Source: a virus
Taxonomy: Duplodnaviria; Heunggongvirae; Uroviricota; Caudoviricetes
Virus record (IMG/VR): IMGVR_UViG_2778261313_000007
Reading direction: 5' to 3' (one strand)
DNA: 17,248 nt
Position numbers and translations under genes: made by a program. Positions 1 through 17,248 of this stretch are shown here, one piece after another; within the stretch, counting starts at the first letter, position 1; each line of letters opens with the position of its first letter. The notes below the pieces were generated by a model, which was given only the letters and a program-made list of their open reading frames with translations, searched no databases and was not told the DNA's origin.

Positions 1-36
1 CCACGGGAATATCTGCGGCAGCGGGCTTGTAATGGG

Positions 37-1446
37 TTAAGTGATAACAGATGTCTGGAAATATAGGGGCAAATCCAAGAATGGAGCACGGTCACGAGTT
101 ACATCAGAGATATCGGAATAACCTAAACCATTTTTGTTAGCAACAACAACACGACGGTTAAAGGTAATGCCGCCAGATGTGTGACGAACAACATTAACGT
201 TATTAGCGTAGGTATCAAGGACACCATCACCGTTTTGTTTAAATCCAGTATCACTATCGCCTAAAACAATAGAATTTCCACCCAATCCGTTAGCAACACC
301 AACACCAAAACCGCTATTAAACTTAGGAATGGTTGCATCCTGACTAATAGACAGTTGGGGAGCGTTAATTTTACCGTTTACGCTAAACTCGATTGCGGTA
401 GTACCAGGACCGCCAGCACGCTGTGTGTAGAAATGCCAGCCGCTTTCATCTGCGCATTCTAATACTTGTTTACGAGTATCATTACCCCATGCACGAATAT
501 TGAAGCTAGATTGTCCGGTATTCTTACCCCATCTCATTTGACCAGCAACTTCAAGATCACCTAAGAAATATGCCTTTAGTCCACCTGTAGCCATATTACG
601 TTCGGTGCTGAAATGGCGACCTTTGCTGTCTTCGAGGTATAAAACGTTATCACGGGCGTTGTTGCTATCGCCCCAATGATTAAATCGAATATAATCACGC
701 GATCCAGAACGCCCAGCGTCGAAAGTCAAAAAACCTTTCTTAATGTAAACGTCATTACTAAAACGAGCGGCACGGCTTGCACGTTCTAACGTTAATGCAT
801 CTTCGTTACCATCACCGCCTAATTGAACGTTACCGGAAGTCAGATCATAAATGAATGGTCGATAAGTATTCCAACCACCAAACTTATCGTTTTCAGCCGT
901 TGACAGAAGATAAACTTTTGCGGAGTCATTGCGCCAAAATGCACCATAATTGCCGTAAATCATACGGAATGCATTTGAGTTAGCAGCTACATACTCGCCG
1001 TTTGTATATACAATTTTAGTTGCACCAGTGGTAATAGAGCATTGACCGTTAGCTTCTAGCTGAAATGAGTTTTTCCCCTGATCGCTATACCATTGGAAGT
1101 TATTTGTTTCAGCACTACCAAAACCAATCCAACCTTGACGAGCATTAGCACCATTGCGGCGGTCTTGCCATTCAATATAGTTTGATTGATTACTAGGACG
1201 CTCTAATCTAAGAACGTTTTGTCCGGCATCAAATACACCTTTACCAGTAAACATGGTGCGACCAGTGATTCGTAGAACTTCGCTAGAATCGGTAGTACCA
1301 GTCGCTAAACGATAAACGTTACCTTGAACAGTTTCATGCCAGATTGTTTCTGCGGCTTTACTACGGAATTTACGAAGATATTTTTTACCAGTACCTGAAT
1401 CGTTATTCAAACTGACAATATCATATGTACCCTGTCCGTTTATCAA
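37..1446 (-). CDS. tail fibre / receptor-binding protein (distal fibre)
   Basis: 468-codon ORF ending at TAA 37-39. G/N/S/T/D-rich composition typical of fibre tips. Overlaps the upstream fibre gene by 26 nt. The only start near the 5' end is TTG at 1444-1446 (no in-frame ATG for about 60 codons) and there is no clear SD, so the start is uncertain and may be translationally coupled. Confidence 0.6.
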   Translation of the reverse strand: MINGQGTYDIVSLNNDSGTGKKYLRKFRSKAAETIWHETVQGNVYRLATGTTDSSEVLRITGRTMFTGKGVFDAGQNVLRLERPSNQSNYIEWQDRRNGANARQGWIGFGSAETNNFQWYSDQGKNSFQLEANGQCSITTGATKIVYTNGEYVAANSNAFRMIYGNYGAFWRNDSAKVYLLSTAENDKFGGWNTYRPFIYDLTSGNVQLGGDGNEDALTLERASRAARFSNDVYIKKGFLTFDAGRSGSRDYIRFNHWGDSNNARDNVLYLEDSKGRHFSTERNMATGGLKAYFLGDLEVAGQMRWGKNTGQSSFNIRAWGNDTRKQVLECADESGWHFYTQRAGGPGTTAIEFSVNGKINAPQLSISQDATIPKFNSGFGVGVANGLGGNSIVLGDSDTGFKQNGDGVLDTYANNVNVVRHTSGGITFNRRVVVANKNGLGYSDISDVTRDRAPFLDLPLYFQTSVIT

Positions 1447-3082
1447 ACATCAACGTTCCGGCCTTGTTTTCGGTGTTGAACATTGTAATAACACGTCCAT
1501 CTGTAACACCAGTAGACGGCTTAACGTTAGTCATAGCTGGGGTGTCATGAACAGTCAGTGAAACACCGCTAGTCTTACCATATTCGACAATAACGTTATC
1601 AGTATAACGACCGTAGTTAACGTAAATGTCGTAGTTATCACCGGAAGTATTAACCGCAAATACTTGATGAACGTTCAAAGAGTTTCGACGATAAGCAGCA
1701 ATACTAACGCCTTTCGGGTTATTGTTACCGGAACGGATAACAATTTCAAGGAAATCAACCTGATCATAGGAGTTAACGTTATAACCATTACCACCGAAGA
1801 TACGAAGCATTACCATACGACCATTTTGTGGGATCGTAGCCGTAGCAATCTTGAAATAAGCACGGGATTCACTACCAGAAGGAACAGACATTGTGACATT
1901 TTTAATAAACATCTTATCAATTTCGCCTTTGGTATATGCGCCAATTTCAGCAGGAGTCGGTTTATCCCCTTCGTGATACATTTTATAGCTAAACGCTTTT
2001 TGTCCCTGAGCATCAAAACCATAGGTTTCAACACGAGATCCGCCAGACGCATAACGGAAAGTAAATCCTCGACCATGCGCTTTACCGGAAGAGTGAGGAA
2101 CGTTAAGGGTTAGATCCATGAGTCCATCTTGACCATTGGTACGGAATGCACCGAAGTAATTAAGATCTCTCGCGGTTGAATCTTCCAGATAGTTACCAGT
2201 CTTGCTATACAAATACGCGCCGTGATAGGTCTTTGTGTTCTTCTTGATATATGCTGCGTTAGCACTACCTTCAATACCATCAATTCGCTTGTTGGCGGCT
2301 GTAATTGCGGCATCGGTCGATGATTTGTTCTGGTCTACCTTGTTGTTAATAGCGGTATGGTTACTATTCACAGTGCCAGTAAGGTTACTGATTTTAGTAT
2401 CAGCATCTTTCTTGTTGTCGGAAACGACCTTTTCAATCGCTGTTTTGTTAGCTGCAACCGTGCTAGTTAAGCTAGAAATTTTGTTATCTGCATCGGTTTT
2501 ATTTGCAGTAACAGTTTTAGTTAAGTTGCTAACGTTGGTGTTAGTGGTATTAACCTTGTTGTTAATCGCGGTGTTATTGTCAGTGACCGTTTTCGTTAAA
2601 GCTGCATGTTTGCTATCTGCATCAGATTTGTTTGCGGCAACGGTTCTTTCAATTGCGATCTTATTCGCAGATACGGTCCCCGTAAGGTTATTGATCTTAG
2701 TGTCGGCATCGGTTTTATTTGCCGTAACTGTCTGGGTTAAGTTACTAACAGTGGTGTTGGTAGCATCAATGCGCTTATTGGTTGCGGTGTCTTTAGCGGT
2801 AATAGTCTGATTCAGTTCAGCTTTAACACTAGCCAGATTATTAGCGGCCTCTTGTTTGTTGGAAGCAATAACACGGTCAGTGCTAGTTTTATTCTGGTCT
2901 ACTTTCGTGTTAAGTTCAGCGTGTTTTTCTGGAGAAACAGAGATTTGAACTACTGCGTTATTTTTATCTTTGGTATACAGAACGTGATCAGCAAGGTTAA
3001 TAGCCAATTCACCCTGTGATAATTGTTCCGGCGTTGGTTTTTTACCAGCCGTTTGTGTGCGTTTAAATTGGATTGATTGCAT
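1421..3082 (-). CDS. tail fibre protein with T/N-rich repeat shaft
   Basis: ATG at 3080-3082 preceded by GAGGTGA SD, stop TGA 1421-1423. N-terminal motif KKPTPEQLSQGELAINLADHVLY. Central repeats of about 14 aa (TVTANKTDADTKINNLTGTV and variants), visible as DNA-level repeats across roughly 2300-2900. C-terminal globular domain. Confidence 0.7.
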   Translation of the reverse strand: MQSIQFKRTQTAGKKPTPEQLSQGELAINLADHVLYTKDKNNAVVQISVSPEKHAELNTKVDQNKTSTDRVIASNKQEAANNLASVKAELNQTITAKDTATNKRIDATNTTVSNLTQTVTANKTDADTKINNLTGTVSANKIAIERTVAANKSDADSKHAALTKTVTDNNTAINNKVNTTNTNVSNLTKTVTANKTDADNKISSLTSTVAANKTAIEKVVSDNKKDADTKISNLTGTVNSNHTAINNKVDQNKSSTDAAITAANKRIDGIEGSANAAYIKKNTKTYHGAYLYSKTGNYLEDSTARDLNYFGAFRTNGQDGLMDLTLNVPHSSGKAHGRGFTFRYASGGSRVETYGFDAQGQKAFSYKMYHEGDKPTPAEIGAYTKGEIDKMFIKNVTMSVPSGSESRAYFKIATATIPQNGRMVMLRIFGGNGYNVNSYDQVDFLEIVIRSGNNNPKGVSIAAYRRNSLNVHQVFAVNTSGDNYDIYVNYGRYTDNVIVEYGKTSGVSLTVHDTPAMTNVKPSTGVTDGRVITMFNTENKAGTLMFDKRTGYI

Positions 3083-3100
3083 CTAGAATCACCTCACTAT

Positions 3101-3131
3101 AAAACAGGAATAAGGGAGGCGTTAACCTCCC
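3101..3131 (-). terminator. hairpin plus U-tract between the 277-aa gene and the fibre genes (attenuator candidate)
   Basis: GGGAGG-CGTTAA-CCTCCC inverted repeat at 3114-3131. On the minus strand it is followed by UUAUUCCUGUUUU. Confidence 0.4.
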
Positions 3132-3162
3132 CGCGTCATGTTTTATTTAGGTAGGAGAATCC

Positions 3163-3996
3163 TTAGTATTCGCCGAAATCGATCCGGTCAGTCTTAGCCA
3201 CTGCGCCAATTTCGCTAGGTGTCGGTTTCTCGTTTGTAGAATAGACTTTAATCCATTCAGATTTACCGTTTTCCTGAATATTTCGGACGCGTAAACGCGG
3301 TGCGCCAGAAGTATTACAGGTTAATTGCCATGCGCCATGCTCATTAGCTTGAAGATGAATTAACGATGTATCAGCACCATAAGGGTTAGTGCTAGCAGTT
3401 CCCTTGTAAGTTACGAAACGGTTTCCTGTCAGAGATTCACTATCAATAGGACCACTGAAAGGATTTACACCAGCACCGATACCAAAATCACCCTGACGTA
3501 AGATCCGGCCTTCGGTAGCAATACCCCTTGCCAAAATCCCGCCATCTGGTTCAAGTTTAAATTCCAGTGTTACAGCTTTGTTATCTGCGCCACGGGTTTT
3601 GTGACTAGTGACATAAGCGTCATAGATGACATAGTAACCAGTGTTAGCAGCACTATAGCCAGAGTTCACAACATAGAACATACGGAAGCGTAAAGGTGTT
3701 TTATCCTCTACCGCTTTCATCAACATTGCTTGATGTTCATCGTCAAGAACACGGTTTAATGTGAGTGTTGTCGGTTCCAGTCTACGATAACCAGCAAGTT
3801 TCCCCGTAGCGTCCTGATCGTACTCTTCCAGAGTTTCTATCTCTGTGGATTCGGTTAGCGTAGGGAATGCTGCGATGTTCTCCATAGAACTAAAGCTAGG
3901 ATCGAAAAAGTCGACCTGATTGTCTATCTGGTTAGAGATCGACACTTCAACATGTGATCCAGTGAAAATATCTAAGTTATCTTGTGTAATATTCAT
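3163..3996 (-). CDS. virion structural protein, probably tail- or fibre-associated (function unassigned)
   Basis: ATG 3994-3996 with AAGGGG SD, stop TAA 3163-3165. Lies between head-completion-sized genes and the fibre genes. C-terminus carries EKPTPSEIGAV, the same short motif found in the adjacent fibre protein. Confidence 0.45.
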   Translation of the reverse strand: MNITQDNLDIFTGSHVEVSISNQIDNQVDFFDPSFSSMENIAAFPTLTESTEIETLEEYDQDATGKLAGYRRLEPTTLTLNRVLDDEHQAMLMKAVEDKTPLRFRMFYVVNSGYSAANTGYYVIYDAYVTSHKTRGADNKAVTLEFKLEPDGGILARGIATEGRILRQGDFGIGAGVNPFSGPIDSESLTGNRFVTYKGTASTNPYGADTSLIHLQANEHGAWQLTCNTSGAPRLRVRNIQENGKSEWIKVYSTNEKPTPSEIGAVAKTDRIDFGEY

Positions 3997-4892: not shown

Positions 4893-6947
4893 TCAGTCAA
4901 CTTTTTTCTGAACTACGGTCAGTGCGCTATGGTCCATAACAGCCCAATCCAGATCAGCCCATACACGGAAGTACAGGTTGCCAGCCGCGCGACCTGTGGT
5001 ATCGTCGCAATCCAGTTCCAGCGATCCGAAGTCTGCAACAACAAGGGAGCTAAAGTCACCAAACAGCATGGTATCCTGAGCAACTACACCAGAGCCATAG
5101 ATCGGACGGTTAACCAGTTTATCGCCTTCTACCAGGAAGCCCGGAACATTAGCTGCTTTGAGTTGCGCTGCCAGTTCAGCTTTAACAACACCACGGGTAG
5201 CAAATGCCAGATCCGCTTCGTTATAACCTTTGTCGGTCAGTTCAGCTACCAGTTTCAGGAACTCGGCATAGGTCCAATCAATCTGTTTAACTTTGCCAGC
5301 GTCGGTCAGGATCTTAGTCAGACCATCACGAGCGTTAGTGTTAGCAGCATTGGACAGAATCGCTTTTTCCAGAGCGATAGCACTGTGTTTCAGCATGTGC
5401 TCACCAACGATAGCGCCAATATTGGGCAGTGTGATTGCAGCCTGACGCGTTACAGGAACAATTCCGTTAAAAGTCTTGAGAGTCATCGGCTGCGCTGCAA
5501 ACTTAATAGTACCTTCACCAGCGGATTGACCTTCTGCAACAAAACCGAAGTTTTCCAGATTGCTGGAAGTCAGAGACGGCAGAGAAACAGGACCAGTTGC
5601 GTTAATGGTACGCACACCCAATTTACCCAGAATAGAACGTTCCATGATCATATCAACGAAGCAATCATGGCGGATTTCTTCACCAACTACTGGTTTCAGA
5701 GATTCCATGTTCTGGCTAGCACGCAGAGCGGACGCCGGAATGAATACGGAGTTAGAACGCTGCGCACGACCACGCGCTGCGGCTTTACGTGCTTCTTCCT
5801 GAGAATATTCAGCTTCTGCGCCAGTCAGGGCTTTACCCTCTGCGATTGCACGTACAGCTTTATTAAGATCGAAACGGGATTCCAGAGTTTTAATGGTATC
5901 GGTCATGGTAATTTTTCCTTTAACAAAAGTTTTAGATTCGGTAGTATTTAGTGCGCGTGCTTTTTCTTTAAAATTTTCAATAGTCACGGCACTATCTTTA
6001 ATTGCAGCTTCAATCACGTCTTCGGAGATATTTAGATGTTTTCCGATAGCACGAATTTCGGCGGTATCTTCGCGAGAACGTTCAAACGGTTTTTCTTCGT
6101 CTTCAATCTTTTCTTCTTCGACTGGTTCGGATGTATTTTCCGTTTCGTCGTTCTCGTCTGTATCTTTATTTAGTTCTTCTGTTTCTTCCGGTTCATCTTC
6201 GGAACGTTCTTCTTTTTCTTCTGGCGTTACTTCTTGCGGTTCTTCCACATCTTCGCCACTGTCAGCACTATTTCCAGAATCGGAATCAATTTCTTCATTT
6301 TCTTGTTCCTCTTTCTCTTCTTCGGAACGTTTTTCTTCATCTTCCGGTTTAATTTCTTCGACCGGAGTATCTTTAATTTCGTCTTCCACTTGTTCACCCT
6401 CCAAAACAATCATTTCGTTGTCTGTATTTAGAGAGCGTCCAACACCCGCATTAAATGGATCTGCGGCACACGTTACAAGACTGCATTCGAAAGGTTGCCA
6501 GCGTGTAACATAATAGATCCCTTTGTTAAAATCGGCTTTGCCATCAAGAACGTTATAACCGACGCTAACTTGTGAAAGTGTTCCCTCTTTTACCTTCTCA
6601 AAGCATTCATTAGCCAGTTGGCCTACTTTGGAGAATTGGACAAGGCAACGACCTACACGGTCTTCGTCAATACGAGCGGAGCCAGGAACAATCTTGCCGA
6701 TATGAAGATCCAGATTGTGATTAAACAGAAGACTTGCGTTAGTCTCGTTTAAAACGGATAGATCAACCGCTGATTCATCGTGTACGAGAATCTCTTTTAA
6801 TTCGACTTGCTCGCCGTCCTGATTCATGTAATAACGTGTATAAGGAGCCTCGCTTGAGAAAGCCAATTCAATAATTCGTTCGTCTTTTTCTTCGATAAAA
6901 TCAGGGGTATCTACCGCAACACTACGACGGAATTGTTTTGTTGTCAT
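4893..6947 (-). CDS. prohead protease / acidic scaffold-like linker / HK97-fold major capsid protein fusion
   Basis: ATG 6945-6947 with AAGGTGA SD, stop TGA 4893-4895. N-terminal roughly 180 aa resemble a caudoviral prohead protease. A middle stretch of about 100 aa is extremely E/D-rich (DNA roughly 6077-6392). The C-terminal roughly 330 aa have an HK97-type capsid pattern. Sits immediately after the portal gene. Domain assignment is from recollection of family patterns, not a search. Confidence 0.75.
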   Translation of the reverse strand: MTTKQFRRSVAVDTPDFIEEKDERIIELAFSSEAPYTRYYMNQDGEQVELKEILVHDESAVDLSVLNETNASLLFNHNLDLHIGKIVPGSARIDEDRVGRCLVQFSKVGQLANECFEKVKEGTLSQVSVGYNVLDGKADFNKGIYYVTRWQPFECSLVTCAADPFNAGVGRSLNTDNEMIVLEGEQVEDEIKDTPVEEIKPEDEEKRSEEEKEEQENEEIDSDSGNSADSGEDVEEPQEVTPEEKEERSEDEPEETEELNKDTDENDETENTSEPVEEEKIEDEEKPFERSREDTAEIRAIGKHLNISEDVIEAAIKDSAVTIENFKEKARALNTTESKTFVKGKITMTDTIKTLESRFDLNKAVRAIAEGKALTGAEAEYSQEEARKAAARGRAQRSNSVFIPASALRASQNMESLKPVVGEEIRHDCFVDMIMERSILGKLGVRTINATGPVSLPSLTSSNLENFGFVAEGQSAGEGTIKFAAQPMTLKTFNGIVPVTRQAAITLPNIGAIVGEHMLKHSAIALEKAILSNAANTNARDGLTKILTDAGKVKQIDWTYAEFLKLVAELTDKGYNEADLAFATRGVVKAELAAQLKAANVPGFLVEGDKLVNRPIYGSGVVAQDTMLFGDFSSLVVADFGSLELDCDDTTGRAAGNLYFRVWADLDWAVMDHSALTVVQKKVD

Positions 6948-9092: not shown

Positions 9093-10997
9093 TTAGAACG
9101 ATGTTACCCAGCTACGGCCTCTATTTGGGCGTCTGGCGATGTTTTGACGTTGTGGTCGTGTGATTGGCTTAGTTTCTTCGATTTGCTCGTCAGATTGCGT
9201 TTCAGGAGCTTTTACGGGTTCTTCTGGTTCACGGTTCAAACTATCTTTGATGGCTTCGAGTTTTTCCCATGACATTTTATTGAGTACATGGCGAGAAGCA
9301 GCATAGGAATAAGCCAGGCAGTCGAGAGCCTCGTTTCGTTGCTGACCAACTTTTACCCAACGTGTGGTATTACCCTGCCGTTTCAACTGTTCAGAAAGCA
9401 ATTGCTCGCAATAGTCATCAGGAACGTCACCAATCTGGAAGACAGTATGAGGATCGCCATCTCTCAAGTTCCGGTTAATCATTTCACGGATCATCGTCTT
9501 AAGGTTGTTTACGCCCAGAATTTTGAGAGTAAAACCGCCCGTTCTTGTGTCCTTAGCCGGAAGGATTGGAGCATCAGCATTACTTGCGCCTTTAATGGCG
9601 CATAGGTTTTGCCACCTAGTGCAAAAACGGTAGATCACGTTTGTAGCTCGTCCGTTCGATGAGTCCACGAAAGCAGATAGCATCGGGATTCGTTCACCGG
9701 ATCGGGTATAGAATTTCGCTTTCAGGAAGTTATAAAGCTGGTCATATGCTGGTGATTCGTGGCGTTCGCAGTTCACATCATAGAATGATCGGTGATCAAC
9801 TACGCATATCCCCTTACGAGAGATACCCAGCAAGGTAGATTCCAGACGGTCTTTTTGCTGGTCAACTCCACCTACCAGAGCCAGTACATCATCAGGAATA
9901 TTGTCTAGGCTAATATCAGTTTTCAGCGTTTCCAGTTCGTCGGCTGTGCGATCTTCGTTAAGATCATCGAAGGTTTCACCGAGGACTGTATTGTAGAACG
10001 TTGCTAGTGACATATTCGCGTAGCTATCAGCAAAGTCCACCACACACGCACGGATAGAACTAAACGGAGACATAAGGCGGTTAGCATGAAAACCGATTAC
10101 TTCCGCATTTGGTTCCGTAGCAATCCATTCACCTTGAGCAACAGCACGTAGGCGATCCCCTTCTGTCCAATCAGTTTCACATGACGGGCAACGATAAACG
10201 GCAGTATCTGGATTCGGCAGTGATTTACAGTTAATCGTATGCCAATCAAAGAAAACTCTACTCCATTCCATTACGTGCTTGTGTCCGCAATGCTGGCAAA
10301 CGACATGATATTTTCTCTTATCCGAGAGTTCCCATTGTTGGTTAATCGCCCCATCACGAGCGGTTGGAGTGGAAGCAATTACGATCCTTGCATCTTCCCC
10401 GAAAGTGGTTGCGCGTTGTTCCGCTAGCTGGATCGGGTTCCCTTCGTCTGACTCATCAGCCGCATCAACTTCATCAAGAATAATCAAAGGGAGTGTTTTA
10501 CCGCGAAGATGTGACGGACTATTCAACGACATGAAATACATAAACGATCCGTTACGAAGCTGAATAATCGATGAGTTGTTAACGGCATTGCGATCTGATT
10601 TGTCGGTGATCATCGCCTTTAATTCTGGTGTTGCCTCTAATACTGGCTTCACCTTACCAGCGATCCAGCTATTCAACTCGCGGACATTCGATTGCAACAC
10701 CCCGATATTAGTAGGGTTACTCGCGATCCGATGGAAGATAATTCCGTTAAGAATCATGGTCTTACCCAACTGCGCCGAACATTTAAACACAATTTTTCTA
10801 CGGTCTTCGGTGATCGCGTCCATCATTCCACGTTGGAAGGGATGCAATTTAATTAGCGATCCGGCTTTAACACCATCGGTCGCAACTACATTAGCCTCTA
10901 CCCATTCGCTAGGTTTCATGGTTTTAGGTGGACGAATTGCAGCAGAGATATTTTTGAGAATCTTTTTTAATTTTGCCTTATTAGAAATCAGTTTCAT
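9093..10997 (-). CDS. terL: terminase large subunit (GpA-like)
   Basis: ATG 10995-10997 with GAGGGT SD, stop TAA 9093-9095. 634 aa. Deviant Walker A KCSAQLGKT, Walker B LPLIILDEVDA, Cys pair motifs CQHCGH...CPSC (zinc-ribbon-like), and a C-terminal acidic nuclease-like region. First gene of the structural operon. Confidence 0.85.
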   Translation of the reverse strand: MKLISNKAKLKKILKNISAAIRPPKTMKPSEWVEANVVATDGVKAGSLIKLHPFQRGMMDAITEDRRKIVFKCSAQLGKTMILNGIIFHRIASNPTNIGVLQSNVRELNSWIAGKVKPVLEATPELKAMITDKSDRNAVNNSSIIQLRNGSFMYFMSLNSPSHLRGKTLPLIILDEVDAADESDEGNPIQLAEQRATTFGEDARIVIASTPTARDGAINQQWELSDKRKYHVVCQHCGHKHVMEWSRVFFDWHTINCKSLPNPDTAVYRCPSCETDWTEGDRLRAVAQGEWIATEPNAEVIGFHANRLMSPFSSIRACVVDFADSYANMSLATFYNTVLGETFDDLNEDRTADELETLKTDISLDNIPDDVLALVGGVDQQKDRLESTLLGISRKGICVVDHRSFYDVNCERHESPAYDQLYNFLKAKFYTRSGERIPMLSAFVDSSNGRATNVIYRFCTRWQNLCAIKGASNADAPILPAKDTRTGGFTLKILGVNNLKTMIREMINRNLRDGDPHTVFQIGDVPDDYCEQLLSEQLKRQGNTTRWVKVGQQRNEALDCLAYSYAASRHVLNKMSWEKLEAIKDSLNREPEEPVKAPETQSDEQIEETKPITRPQRQNIARRPNRGRSWVTSF

Positions 10998-12082: not shown

Positions 12083-12090
12083 AAAAATTA

Positions 12091-12906
12091 TTACAGTCCG
12101 AAGACTTCCAGTGATCCAACATTCTGGCGGAGACGTTCAGCCGCTTTATTTTGAATCAGAATAGTGTTGTTCGGCTTAGGAAGATTCAGAGTTGCTTTTT
12201 GTTCTTCTTCCAGAACACCCAATTCAACCAGCACCGGAAGCACATCAACAGTAAACTCAAGCTGGTAGTGAGCATTCATGCGGCAGAAAGACAGAGAAGA
12301 GTCATTAGCAACATACCCACACGGCTTGTTATTTTCATCATAGACGCGCTCAATGTATCCAGCAGTACGTAAGGCCGTCAGTGCTTCTTTAACCTTCGTA
12401 GCGCCCTTTTTAGCGCCTAACAGACGTGTCATTGAATGGCTGTCTACAGACTTACGAACATGAAGTTCAATCAGCTTTTTATTTTCACGAGTTTTCTTTA
12501 ACGCCAGTTCGATCCAGTCGGTTTCTTCAAAGTCTGCATACGGGTTAACGGCTAAACGTTCCTGACGCAGTTTTTCATTTTCTTCTTTCAGTCGTTTCCA
12601 TTCCTGAATAACGATCATTCGACGCTTAACATCGTAACCAGTGACAAGAGTCAGCGTCATTTCTTCGTCAAGGTGATATTCGGTTTGTTCACGTCCACAC
12701 TGATCAAGATAGGTGCGCTCAAAACTGAGCACATCTAATTCCAGAGCATCGAGCATGGATTTAATATCACGTTTAACGTTTTTATGCTCTTTTCCGGTAA
12801 ATTCAGCGATCTGACGAGAAGACATGGTCAGCGGTTTGGTGTTATCAACAACCAGAGACACGGAAGCAGGTTTAATAGCAGTATTCATAGTAGTAACAGT
12901 ATTCAT
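12091..12906 (-). CDS. rha: Rha-family phage regulatory protein (antirepressor-like)
   Basis: ATG 12904-12906 with AAGGGG SD, stop TAA 12091-12093. N-terminal MSSRQIAEFTGKEHKNVKRDIKSML matches the Rha (pRha) N-terminal domain signature. Followed by a minus-strand terminator. Confidence 0.75.
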   Translation of the reverse strand: MNTVTTMNTAIKPASVSLVVDNTKPLTMSSRQIAEFTGKEHKNVKRDIKSMLDALELDVLSFERTYLDQCGREQTEYHLDEEMTLTLVTGYDVKRRMIVIQEWKRLKEENEKLRQERLAVNPYADFEETDWIELALKKTRENKKLIELHVRKSVDSHSMTRLLGAKKGATKVKEALTALRTAGYIERVYDENNKPCGYVANDSSLSFCRMNAHYQLEFTVDVLPVLVELGVLEEEQKATLNLPKPNNTILIQNKAAERLRQNVGSLEVFGL

Positions 12907-12997
12907 AGTAAAAATTCCCCTTAAACGGTTTAGTGATTTGGTCCTCCTAGTTCCGGCAGCATCACCGGAACAATTTTATTTATAAGAAGTTTTTATC

Positions 12998-13144
12998 TCA
13001 TTTAGATTCAGCAATCGCGCGATCAATTTCTTCTTGAATGCGACGCTGGCGTTCATGGAAGTCAACCATTGAGAAATTCAGGTTTGGGGTCCACGGTTTG
13101 CGGTTCGGGGTTTTACGTCCATCAATTTTCTTAGTAGTGTTCAT
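12998..13144 (-). CDS. small basic protein (48 aa), first gene of the rha operon
   Basis: Below the ORF-track size cutoff. ATG 13142-13144 preceded by AAAGAGGA SD. Protein MNTTKKIDGRKTPNRKPWTPNLNFSMVDFHERQRRIQEEIDRAIAESK. Sits directly downstream of a TTGACA-17-TATGAT promoter with palindromic operator. Confidence 0.35.
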   Translation of the reverse strand: MNTTKKIDGRKTPNRKPWTPNLNFSMVDFHERQRRIQEEIDRAIAESK

Positions 13145-13734: not shown

Positions 13735-13934
13735 AGTGGAAATCCTCTAAAAGAAAGTGAATCAATCTAATATTATTTATAAAGAGAAAATTCTTGTTAT
13801 TATGAAAGGTGATTGTATTCAGTCGGGCAAAGCCCTCCTTCATAGATTTTGAATAAATCATCATCAAAACGAAGAAGTATCTTTAGAATATAAGAATCTT
13901 TCTTTTGGAGAAATAATAATCAGGAAGCAATTTG

Positions 13935-13963
13935 GCAACCGAAGGTTGCAATCCCGAAGGGAT
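13935..13963 (-). other. tandem UUCG-type hairpins
   Basis: Two adjacent inverted repeats: GCAACC-GAA-GGTTGC (13935-13949) and ATCCC-GAA-GGGAT (13951-13963). On the minus strand both read as C(UUCG)G tetraloop hairpins. Confidence 0.4.
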
Positions 13964-14089
13964 AACCAATACCTTTCTAGAAAGTGATTGTTACTCACTT
14001 CGTTCGTTTACTAGAATCAGTTAGTAACTAGTATTAAATCCCTTTCTGAGAAAATCCTTTCAAAAGCGAGTGAACGCCGTAGGTGTGAA

Positions 14090-14169
14090 CGTGAGCGAAG
14101 CGAACTATCCAATCCCTTTCGAATCCTGCTTGCAGGTCTTAGAAGGTGTTGATGGGCGCTTCGCGCACG
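14090..14169. repeat. extended imperfect dyad symmetry centred on a CCTGC-TT-GCAGG palindrome
   Basis: Arms CGTGAGCGAAGCG (14090-14102) and CGCTTCGCGCACG (14157-14169) are reverse complements with one mismatch. The midpoint coincides with the palindrome at 14125-14136. Partial symmetry extends out to about 14073-14180. Confidence 0.6.
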
Positions 14170-14310
14170 GCTACGCCGTATTCTTTTTGCGAGATCTTTC
14201 TTGAACGTAGTGAGAGAAAACGAGCAAAAAGGAGAACGTTAGTTCGAATTTTATATTCTATGGTCTGTGTGGTGAAATGTCTTTCAAGATCATACACTTA
14301 TGAGATTGAA

Positions 14311-14407
14311 GTGTAGGGTTAGTGTAGGTGTGTAGGTGTTATAGTGTAGGTTTACTGGCTAGTGTAGTGTAGGCCAATCCCTTTAAAGCGTAGGTTTGTA
14401 GTGTAGG
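14311..14407. repeat. cluster of seven direct GTGTAGG(T) repeats (iteron-like)
   Basis: Six exact GTGTAGG copies starting at 14311, 14322, 14330, 14344, 14367 and 14401, plus the variant GCGTAGG at 14388. All in the same orientation, 8-23 bp apart, immediately left of an AT-rich tract. Confidence 0.7.
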
Positions 14408-14413
14408 TTTTTC

Positions 14414-14430
14414 ATCAAAAATTTTGATAG
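14414..14430. repeat. 15-bp palindrome ATCAAAAATTTTGAT (operator-like), copy 1
   Basis: Perfect palindrome at 14414-14428. The 15-mer CAAAAATTTTGATAG (14416-14430) recurs exactly at 14565-14579. Confidence 0.6.
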
Positions 14431-14515
14431 AAAATTCTTGTATATTATTTAACCAGAAAATCACCAAAAACCGCTGTAAATGCATGATTTAAAAAGAATT
14501 ATCAAAAGGTCGTCG

Positions 14516-14524
14516 TGCTATAAT
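14516..14524 (+). promoter_or_regulatory. extended -10 promoter candidate
   Basis: TGcTATAAT (TG at 14516-14517, TATAAT at 14519-14524). The -35 is weak. Confidence 0.4.
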
Positions 14525-14564
14525 AGGTTATAAAGGTTGATAATCGTTATCCGCCATTTTCACA

Positions 14565-14579
14565 CAAAAATTTTGATAG
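14565..14579. repeat. copy 2 of the CAAAAATTTTGATAG element
   Basis: Exact 15-nt direct repeat of 14416-14430, lying about 25 bp upstream of the -35 of the strong plus-strand promoter. Confidence 0.6.
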
Positions 14580-14604
14580 TCATTTCTCGCTTAGATCAAG
14601 TGTA

Positions 14605-14633
14605 TTGACAACTATCAAGGATTATTTTATACT
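14605..14633 (+). promoter_or_regulatory. near-consensus sigma70 promoter
   Basis: TTGACA (14605-14610), a 17-nt spacer, then TATACT (14628-14633), directed toward the 14977-16529 genes. Confidence 0.6.
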
Positions 14634-14921
14634 TTTTCTCGTTGGTAGGGGTTGAAATTTTCGAAACAATCCCCATATTGATGATACGCAAGATTTTTTC
14701 GTGTATAAATACATGCATGAAAATGATTGTTCACTTCTGAAAATCCCCTGATTCACTGTTAATTCATACAGCACTGGCTAAACATACAGTACTTATTCGA
14801 TTGAATAATGTACGAATTGATTAATTATTAATCTTCTCTTTAGCAATTCGTGCTCCCACTGATCGGATATACAGTGGTTTTACAGGGTTTTTCGAAAAAC
14901 ATTTTATAAATAGAATTGTTC

Positions 14922-14941
14922 AGAGCAAAAAGCTCTTTTTT
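14922..14941 (+). terminator. weak hairpin plus T-run just upstream of the 14977 RBS (attenuator or leader terminator candidate)
   Basis: AGAGC-AAAAA-GCTCT followed by five to six T residues. Short AU-rich stem, so low confidence. Confidence 0.3.
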
Positions 14942-14976
14942 AAGAAATCATTATTCCAGATTTAGGAGGATATAAG

Positions 14977-17140: not shown

Positions 17141-17186
17141 AAATAAGAAAAAGGTTAGCGGGGGATGTTCTCCCATAAGCGCTAAC
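17141..17186 (-). terminator. hairpin plus U-rich tract upstream of the 33-aa peptide gene
   Basis: GTTAGCG ... CGCTAAC 7-bp stem (17154-17186) enclosing a GGGA/TCCC inner stem. On the minus strand it is followed by CUUUUUCUUAUUU. Confidence 0.35.
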
Positions 17187-17248
17187 TTAAGGGTTGTGGT
17201 ATTACGCCTGATATGATTTAACGTGCCGATGAATTACTCTCACGATAA

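Follow-up and report, generated by a model that had tools for sequence, protein, structure and literature searches.

In laboratory lambda, a frameshift with respect to Ur-lambda inactivates the side-fiber gene stf, and the remainder of the virion does not depend on the side fibers (PMC12617516); in T4, the trimeric gp36 attaches to gp37 in its N-terminal region (PMC3004832). Here, we analyze a tail-fiber locus that we compare with both precedents. It lies in a 17,248-nucleotide (nt) stretch of Caudoviricetes DNA (IMG/VR record IMGVR_UViG_2778261313_000007; this whole stretch is referred to as the window), which is an assembly contig of a ~35-kb siphovirus-type Escherichia coli prophage, bounded by ends of the insertion sequences (ISs) IS2 and IS421. 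The locus comprises a gene for a 277-amino-acid (aa) protein, followed by two overlapping open reading frames (ORFs) of 553 and 469 aa. We find that the 553-aa and 469-aa ORFs are a single gp37-like long tail-fiber gene of 1202 codons when intact. Overall, the best explanation of the locus combines one fiber gene with two lesions, a motif at a module boundary, and a 277-aa protein that probably anchors the fiber, an account that we consider quite probable as a whole.

The two fiber ORFs are one frameshifted gp37-like gene

The features of the fiber gene in the window are as follows:
1421-3082, minus strand: 553-aa ORF
37-1446, minus strand: 469-aa ORF, TTG-initiated
78-3082, minus strand: gp37-like long tail-fiber pseudogene, codons 1-1003 of 1202 (from HCP5S3_I4 identity, Krischvirus colinearity, phrog_1699, and Pfam)
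2918-3082, minus strand: N-terminal gp36-docking-type domain of the fiber, aa 1-55
From aa ~290, minus strand: fiber shaft, gp37/gp34/P2-H-like, following a coiled coil
~1439-1441, minus strand: site of a 2-bp deletion (intact GATAATAACGG, window GATAAACGG), with a frame shift after Asp547
1421-1446, minus strand: artefactual 26-nt "overlap" of the ORFs, containing six out-of-frame codons and the stop of the upstream half

The assignment to a single gene is carried by the prophage of E. coli HCP5S3_I4, which contains an uninterrupted ORF of 3609 nt (1202 aa), annotated as "tail fiber domain-containing protein." This allele aligns with window positions 3082→75 at 99.9% identity (3008 nt), with one mismatch and one 2-nt gap, and the gap falls at the junction of the two ORFs, where GATAATAACGG (…MFDNNGQGTYDIV…) in the intact allele corresponds to GATAAACGG in the window. 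Past the deletion, the upstream frame reads six further codons and then TGA, giving the 553-aa product, and in the downstream frame, the TTG is the first start-like codon after a stop, located within 1421-1446. Thus, the TTG "start" and the 26-nt overlap were both made by the 2-bp deletion, and since the deletion explains the geometry of the ORFs, no unconventional initiation need be invoked. The preliminary description of this DNA had given the ORF coordinates (3163-3996, 1421-3082, and 37-1446) and the 26-nt overlap at 1421-1446 correctly. However, it had read them as a TTG-initiated, overlapping distal fiber gene with coupled translation or an unconventional start; the geometry exists, as a product of the deletion, whereas this reading of it falls, because the HCP5S3_I4 allele and all of the complete E. 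coli genomes that match the junction (3/3) read straight through, the latter with 303 nt within one coding sequence (CDS) against 301 nt in the window.

The same continuity is seen at larger evolutionary distance. In a megablast search against phages, window positions 407-2195 matched as one unbroken piece within the single gp37 gene of Krischvirus (RB49-like) phages, and BLASTP places both halves colinearly on the 972-aa Krischvirus gp37, with residues 290-550 of the 553-aa ORF corresponding to gp37 71-332 and residues 3-373 of the 469-aa ORF to gp37 331-701. Likewise, the profile phrog_1699 ("long tail fiber protein distal subunit") is matched by the 553-aa ORF at positions 6-50 and by the 469-aa ORF at positions 450-692. 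The fiber gene is also matched by Pfam Gp34_trimer; the Pfam search returned nothing for the 277-aa and 553-aa proteins. The colinear shaft typical of gp37 is therefore present in one frame in the HCP5S3_I4 allele, and its frame is broken in the window.

Could the two ORFs nevertheless be two true genes, with the distal subunit produced by coupling from the TTG at 1446, or with the two frames joined by programmed +1/-2 frameshifting? The 26-nt overlap does exist, the halves stay open for 553 and 469 codons, T-even fibers consist of several separately encoded proteins, and a Proteus relative does split its fiber into two genes. However, the Proteus split is located elsewhere and shows a ...DFGTF end followed by a full IQFKR N-domain, a pair that the window junction lacks, and Krischvirus gp37 runs unbroken across the junction site. 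Moreover, a programmed frameshift or a coupled gene pair should be kept in relatives, whereas in the 99.9%-identical allele and in each complete genome that matches, the ORF is uninterrupted and has two extra bases. In the window, IS2 also cuts the gene, which fits a gene in decay. We regard two true genes, or two frames joined by frameshifting, as extremely improbable.

The coiled coil of the fiber contains a tandem duplication of ~216 nt (72 aa) at ~2337-2769 on the minus strand, with ~68% DNA identity and the pattern …TVSNLT.TVTANKTDAD.KI..LT.TV.ANK.AIE…. The whole coiled-coil segment (fiber residues ~52-289) has no counterpart in Krischvirus gp37 and is the most variable part among the E. 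coli alleles.

IS2 truncation and inheritance of both lesions

The second lesion lies at the left window edge:
1-77, plus strand: terminal 77 nt of IS2 including the inverted repeat, with the junction ambiguous by 3 nt (75-77)

In >3000 E. coli records, annotated IS2 copies end in a sequence to which window positions 1-77 are 100% identical. As expected of the terminus of this IS3 family element, of which only this end is in the window, these positions include the inverted repeat and the last (3') part of the transposase gene. Homology to the fiber ends at window position 75, so that the native fiber sequence stops at Leu1003 of 1202, and the IS2 inverted repeat supplies the 469-aa ORF with its final 12 codons (DLPLYFQTSVIT) and its stop. 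The part lost to IS2 is the receptor-proximal tip together with the S74-type chaperone segment, which is present in the intact allele, where residues 1069-1198 match PDB 6f45.

Both lesions recur. At least 24 contigs, from different isolates and from gut metagenomes, encode the exact 553-aa product. Of these, five were compared, and all five match the window over the downstream ORF with 0 mismatches, carry GATAAACGG, and end in or at the same IS2 junction. Therefore, the lesions are inherited and not read errors. A sequencing or assembly error, with the gene intact in the organism, would be in keeping with small indels in A/T-rich runs being a common error type and with only one site differing from the intact allele. 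Besides the recurrence on these contigs, which are identical to the window across the region, such an error is contradicted by the nature of the deletion, which removes 2 bp in TAATAA and is no homopolymer slip, and the IS2 truncation would stand regardless; we consider it very unlikely. Taken together, the element is a decaying, cryptic prophage in one E. coli lineage, and what it carries here is at its core ordinary, a fiber pseudogene with a frameshift and an IS interruption.

The 277-aa protein is a tail-tube paralog with a gp36-type end

Directly upstream of the fiber gene, the window shows the following features:
3163-3996, minus strand: gene of the 277-aa protein, with a tube-fold N-domain and a gp36-like C-terminal connector ending in ...KPTPSEIGAVAKTDRIDFGEY
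3514-3996, minus strand: tail-tube-fold N-domain, residues 1-161
3166-3402, minus strand: gp36-like connector, residues ~199-277

The 277-aa protein is a tail-tube paralog fused to a gp36-type C-terminal connector that ends in DFG-x-aromatic. Residues 10-154 match phrog_158 (major tail protein). The 156-aa tube protein from the same prophage family matches this profile in the same region, and the N-domain is 28.7% identical to it (expectation [E] value 5e-13). The AlphaFold2 (AF2) model of the N-domain mostly reaches predicted local distance difference test (pLDDT) values of 70-95, with the loops 53-69 and 113-117 below 50. In Foldseek, it retrieves lambda gpV (7t4f, 8k36) at E ~1e-7 and, over a range of E from 1e-7 to 1e-5, the tubes of lambda gpV, YDC107, and 80alpha. 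The YDC107 match seemed to be a lead, since the prophage sits in the ydc region, and was dropped, the name coming from an unrelated strain. A PDB sequence search with the 277-aa protein gave nothing at E ≤ 1. The tube fold expected of a siphovirus tube protein is thus present, whereas the usual place of the tube gene, just 5' of the chaperones and tape measure, is taken by a separate 156-175-aa paralog.

At its other end, the 277-aa protein aligns co-terminally with residues 426-496 of Krischvirus gp36 (KVYSTNEKPTPSEIGAVAKTDRIDFGEY vs QLYHEGNKPTPADVGAVPLNAVIDFGTF, both up to the stop, E 3e-5), and the gp36-type C-terminal ends resemble each other closely (T4 ...VQDFGYY, Krischvirus ...VIDFGTF, 277-aa protein ...RIDFGEY). 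A 482-aa homolog from a metagenomic contig, 41% identical end to end with the 277-aa protein, bridges the two families, as it matches both phrog_158 and the gp36 family phrog_16472, the latter co-terminally at positions 387-496 of 496 with E 7e-20. The 277-aa protein therefore has the C-terminal segment that in gp36 ends in DFG-x-aromatic before gp37. By contrast, the N-terminal region of gp36 (MADLK.GST.GGS...), which joins gp35/gp34, is replaced by the tube fold, and in a profile search neither the 277-aa protein nor its long-form homolog matched phrog_1425 or the N-terminal positions of phrog_16472. Thus, the protein is not a member of the gp36 family and shares with it the connector end alone. 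With its last 125 aa as the query, tblastn retrieved only two records from phages, one of them Escherichia phage DCP80.

A consensus scan found a further element in the gap between the 277-aa and fiber genes:
3113-3132, minus strand: GC hairpin GGGGAGG-TTAAC-GCCTCCC with a T-rich tail

By its sequence, this hairpin is terminator-like and could lower the expression of the fiber relative to the upstream genes.

A candidate anchor for a T-even-type fiber on a noncontractile tail

In every relative examined, a tube-like protein with a gp36-like tail (…DFG-x-x at the C terminus, …DLGTF in the metagenomic contig) is followed by a gene with a gp37-type N-domain. In the window, this domain (IQFKR...GEL.IN...TKD, the gp36-binding domain of gp37) forms the N terminus of the fiber. 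Fiber residues 3-47 correspond to positions 6-50 of phrog_1699, residues 1-62 align with T4 gp37 4-65 (E 5e-10), and the domain is 47% identical to residues 4-54 of Krischvirus gp37. In DCP80, a 698-aa protein ends in …VIDFGLE, and the next protein starts with …KFKFRRS…LLEGELFINV; in the metagenomic contig, the 482-aa protein ends in …TIDLGTF, and its neighbor starts with KIKFKRSSVTGRKPTGLESGEIGIN. Both homologs have the C-terminal part extended by further fiber-like repeats with the same ending. A Salmonella relative shows the same synteny of C-terminal tail and N-domain, and a Proteus mirabilis prophage has the pairing twice in series, as a three-piece chain. There, the anchor ends in …EIDFGEF, the second piece (198 aa) consists of an IQFKR…GEICINL N-domain, a coiled coil, and the end …LIMDFGTF, and the third piece (675 aa) starts again with IQFKR…GELAINL. 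By sequence, the E. coli fiber looks like a fusion of the last two proteins of this chain.

The tube fold, the gp36-like C terminus, and the paired synteny lead us to read the 277-aa protein as a ring-forming tube paralog that docks the fiber, i.e., it is probably the adaptor for the fiber N terminus. In such a mechanism, the protein would enter the tail as a ring, and its C-terminal arms would dock the gp37-type N-domain of the fiber (IQFKR…GEL.IN…) noncovalently, as T4 gp36 does with gp37. A T-even-style distal half-fiber could thereby be mounted on a noncontractile tail.

Alternatively, the 277-aa protein might be a decorated tail-tube subunit present along the whole tail, comparable to lambda gpV with its immunoglobulin (Ig)-like domain or to SPP1 gp17.1*, and play no part in docking, with the fiber attached, e.g., at the distal tail protein or the tail-tip complex. 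This would agree with the tube fold and the phrog_158 membership, with the frequent occurrence of C-terminal decorations on tube proteins, and with the known side fibers of siphoviruses, which are mounted close to the tip (the Stf collar of Ur-lambda and p132 of T5; PMC12617516). However, the canonical place just 5' of the chaperone and tape measure is held by the separate tube gene, with a gp38-like gene alone in between in some E. coli relatives. Moreover, the 277-aa gene always lies directly 5' of a gene with a gp37-type N-domain, its product is co-terminal with gp36 down to DFG-x-aromatic, and the DCP80 and metagenomic homologs add fiber-like repeats while keeping the same end. We consider a decorated tube subunit unlikely, although less so than either of the alternatives weighed above for the ORF junction.

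Several points count against the proposed account, in which the 277-aa protein docks a fiber whose gene is a pseudogene. A hexameric tube ring carrying trimeric fibers implies a symmetry mismatch. The direct match between the 277-aa protein and gp36 is short (73 aa, 33% identity, with E 3e-5 from a single comparison) and leans on the long-form homolog, and in the AF2 monomer the C-terminal domain is of low confidence, with pLDDT below 50 at residues 162-221. For T4 itself, the parallel N-to-C polarity of the fiber is the basis on which we assume which end of gp36 contacts gp37. Finally, the 553-aa truncated product may still assemble as a short, receptor-blind fiber.

A broader proposal would be that the 277-aa family represents an undescribed type of anchor, a duplicated tube subunit with a gp36 C-terminal "plug," and that plug and socket (…DFG-x-aromatic-COOH and IQFKR…GEL.IN…) form a portable, iterable, noncovalent coupler; to this we give an even chance. 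If so, the coupler would permit the splitting and fusion of fiber genes and their exchange across myovirus and siphovirus lineages, of which the three-piece chain of Proteus, the 698-aa form of DCP80, and the KPTPxEIGA island as a joint (below) would be examples. In the literature that we searched, no tube-paralog fiber anchor was found described, and this adaptor architecture is the modest novelty of the case.

A shared motif marks module boundaries in fiber proteins

Two copies of a KPTPxEIGA motif are present in the window:
3202-3228, minus strand: copy 1, KPTPSEIGA, residues 257-265 of the 277-aa protein, seven residues before the terminal DFGEY
1937-1963, minus strand: copy 2, KPTPAEIGA, fiber residues 374-382, a conserved island at a module boundary

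In their context, the copies read EKPTPSEIGAV (residues 256-266 of the 277-aa protein, conserved in a 22-member alignment of its family) and GDKPTPAEIGAY (residues 372-383 of the 553-aa ORF). The strict pattern KPT[PAST].[ED][ILV][GSN] occurs at these two sites only (K257 of the 277-aa protein and K374 of the fiber) in all six frames. At the DNA level, the copies share 23/27 nt (the 27-nt pattern has two matches where 0 are expected) and form a 30-nt direct repeat of 83% identity, where the DNA similarity stops, whereas the similarity of the proteins around them reaches ~56 residues (32% identity, E 1e-4). The N-terminal KKPTPEQL (fiber residues 14-21, in the context KKPTPEQLSQGELA) belongs to the gp37-type N-terminal domain, where T4 has GTRPAASVLAEGELA and Krischvirus GRRPDAGTMNPGELA at the same place, and has KPTP alone in common with the motif. 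We considered it as a diverged third copy, based on a loose KPT(P/A)xx(L/I) likeness across the prophage alleles, and rejected this, as seven residues are too few and T-even gp37 lacks it.

Like elements occur several times in Krischvirus gp36 (…VYSPVNKPTNNDL…, …FYHTNNKPTKADVG…, …LYHEGNKPTPADVGAV…), once in gp37, and also in the long homologs of the 277-aa protein. The motif, (Y/H)xxx(K/R)PTPx(E/D)(I/V)GA, is thus a general module-boundary element of T-even-type fiber proteins and not peculiar to this locus. Among divergent fiber alleles (E. coli, Salmonella, Proteus, and Krischvirus), the best conserved island is RMYHEGDKPTPAE(I/L)G…F, and just past it identity falls in ETEC4085 and Salmonella, and the Proteus fiber turns to unrelated sequence. 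This divergence right after the internal motif makes a module boundary or a recombination joint plausible at this place. We discarded the motif as the principal site of mosaic breakpoints in the E. coli alleles, since megablast boundaries cluster instead at window 2913-2919, i.e., around codon 55 at the end of the N-terminal domain, which is the commonest boundary among the E. coli relatives.

These results change what had been proposed for the motif in several ways. It had been described as shared by three consecutive proteins, but the 469-aa ORF has no copy and belongs to the same gene as the 553-aa ORF; of the three copies named, those at the C terminus of the 277-aa protein and inside the fiber are real, as the DNA-level alignment suggested at the time bears out, and the N-terminal one drops out. 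The idea of a reused junction or attachment module survives insofar as copy 1 lies in the gp36-like segment, a gene with a gp37-type N-domain comes next, and copy 2 is a conserved island. A recombination hotspot at the motif is in agreement with fibers diverging after it and at odds with the commonest E. coli breakpoint.

Gene order and source prophage

All genes of the head and fiber modules are on the minus strand. The terminase gene, the most upstream of those listed, is followed by genes for a small head-tail joining protein, a lambda-type portal, a fusion of prohead protease and HK97-type capsid, an FII-like connector, and a second small protein, and then by the 277-aa, 553-aa, and 469-aa ORFs:
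9093-10997, minus strand: terminase gpA
4893-6947, minus strand: prohead protease (Peptidase_S78) fused to HK97-type capsid, 684-aa ORF

The linker of the 684-aa fusion, at residues ~175-300, is long and very acidic (E/D-rich). In HCP5S3_I4, an IS2 copy sits in this fusion gene, and the fiber gene there is free of IS2.

The right end of the window (17170-17248) is an IS421/IS186-type end. With an IS end on each side, the window is evidently a contig of a draft assembly broken at repeats, so that ORF ends and "missing" neighbors at its edges are unreliable. The earlier remark that no tail tube or tape measure lies between the head and fiber genes is correct inside the window only: the tail genes are missing because the window stops at the IS2 edge at 77, and relatives carry both downstream. 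In intact relatives, the 3' side of the fiber gene is occupied by genes for the 156-aa tail tube protein (phrog_158) and a gp38-like adhesin (phrog_1121), followed by the tail assembly chaperone (phrog_344), a second small ORF, the 810-aa tape measure, and finally a distal tail protein, a 1258-aa tip protein, an endolysin, and a large serine recombinase. The truly unusual feature is the gene order, in which the head-tail connector genes are followed by the fiber module and only then by the tube gene.

The plain tube gene comes after the fiber gene in the relatives, with adhesin-like genes sometimes in between, and these accessory genes vary. The Salmonella relative has three small paralogous genes of 99-114 aa between fiber and tube (12088-13033), ETEC4085 has a 260-aa "receptor-recognizing protein" there (932-1714), and in CE0007a and HCP5S3_I4 a 168-aa gp38-like adhesin is placed after the tube gene.

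The integration site is known from complete genomes. Among five complete genomes examined, four have the intact ~35-kb prophage, which encodes the large serine recombinase, inserted in hicB, the antitoxin gene of hicAB, so that hicB is left in two fragments while the toxin gene hicA is intact; in strain 39EVA, it lies elsewhere, adjoining prpE and a cytosine permease fragment. E. coli CE0007a (NZ_CP119011.1) and H2 (NZ_CP028733.1) are among the carriers of intact relatives. An example is the following:
NZ_CP119011.1, ~4297608-4332891: intact prophage inside hicB

The lowest G+C content of the window (~0.36) is found at ~13870-14975, a stretch of ~1.1 kb with no ORF above 56 codons, whose counterpart in the relatives (20981-22244 in the HCP5S3_I4 sequence) has no annotated CDS. 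Rfam and tRNA scans of the whole window, this stretch included, gave no match. It may be a regulatory or origin region.

When the capsid-protease protein was searched against isolated phages, the sole close cultured relative was the DCP80 record (PQ671644.1, Escherichia phage, 141 kb), and no virion image or proteome was found for this prophage family. Although the record is classified as Straboviridae/Gaprivervirus, its first 17 kb show synteny with the present prophage family, with genes for a lambda-type terminase, a portal, and an HK97 capsid fusion and with a tube module of the siphovirus type. The assembly may be chimeric or the record mislabeled.

Implications and comparison with known systems

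For annotation, the locus implies that two adjacent fiber ORFs, when a start is odd, are best examined first for being one frameshifted gene and that an ORF end at a contig edge calls for a look for IS sequence; after these two checks, nothing remains here of the unconventional start, the overlap, or the missing tail genes. If the model of a tube paralog with a gp36-type plug holds, it would show how T-even long-fiber modules reach noncontractile tails, and the pair of a short terminal peptide and an N-domain might be used for fiber grafting in host-range engineering.

The closest precedent for the lesion is the stf frameshift of laboratory lambda PaPa with respect to Ur-lambda, where a small frameshift likewise made the side-fiber gene of a temperate siphovirus resemble two genes in two consecutive ORFs. 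Unlike there, the lesion in the window is a 2-bp deletion with an IS2 in the same gene, the shaft is like Krischvirus gp37 and not like Stf, and the element is a resident prophage of natural isolates rather than a laboratory strain. With Salmonella phage S16 and the T2-type pair of gp37 and gp38, the family shares the S74-type chaperone at the end of the intact allele (6f45; Peptidase_S74 in the Salmonella allele) and a gp38-like adhesin (phrog_1121) encoded in relatives. In contrast to that pair, the tube gene parts the adhesin from the fiber gene in most E. coli relatives, and the window has neither the tip nor the adhesin gene, both of which are lost beyond IS2.

As for the anchor, the gp36-gp37 junction of T4 and other T-even phages likewise combines a fiber with a gp37-type N-domain and an upstream protein with a gp36-like end; however, the 277-aa protein has a tube-fold domain in place of the N-terminal part by which gp36 joins gp35/gp34, and gp34, gp35, and a contractile tail are absent here. 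Lambda gpV, the best Foldseek match, has the same tube fold with an appended C-terminal domain, which is Ig-like, whereas the domain appended here is fiber-like and related to gp36 and coexists with a plain tube paralog. Finally, T5 with its p132 collar, DT57C with LtfC, and Ur-lambda with its Stf collar also have a dedicated mount for trimeric side fibers on a noncontractile tail (PMC12617516). Their anchors are collar proteins or the N terminus of the fiber itself around the tube-tip junction, whereas the candidate in this prophage is a tube paralog with a gp36-type plug.

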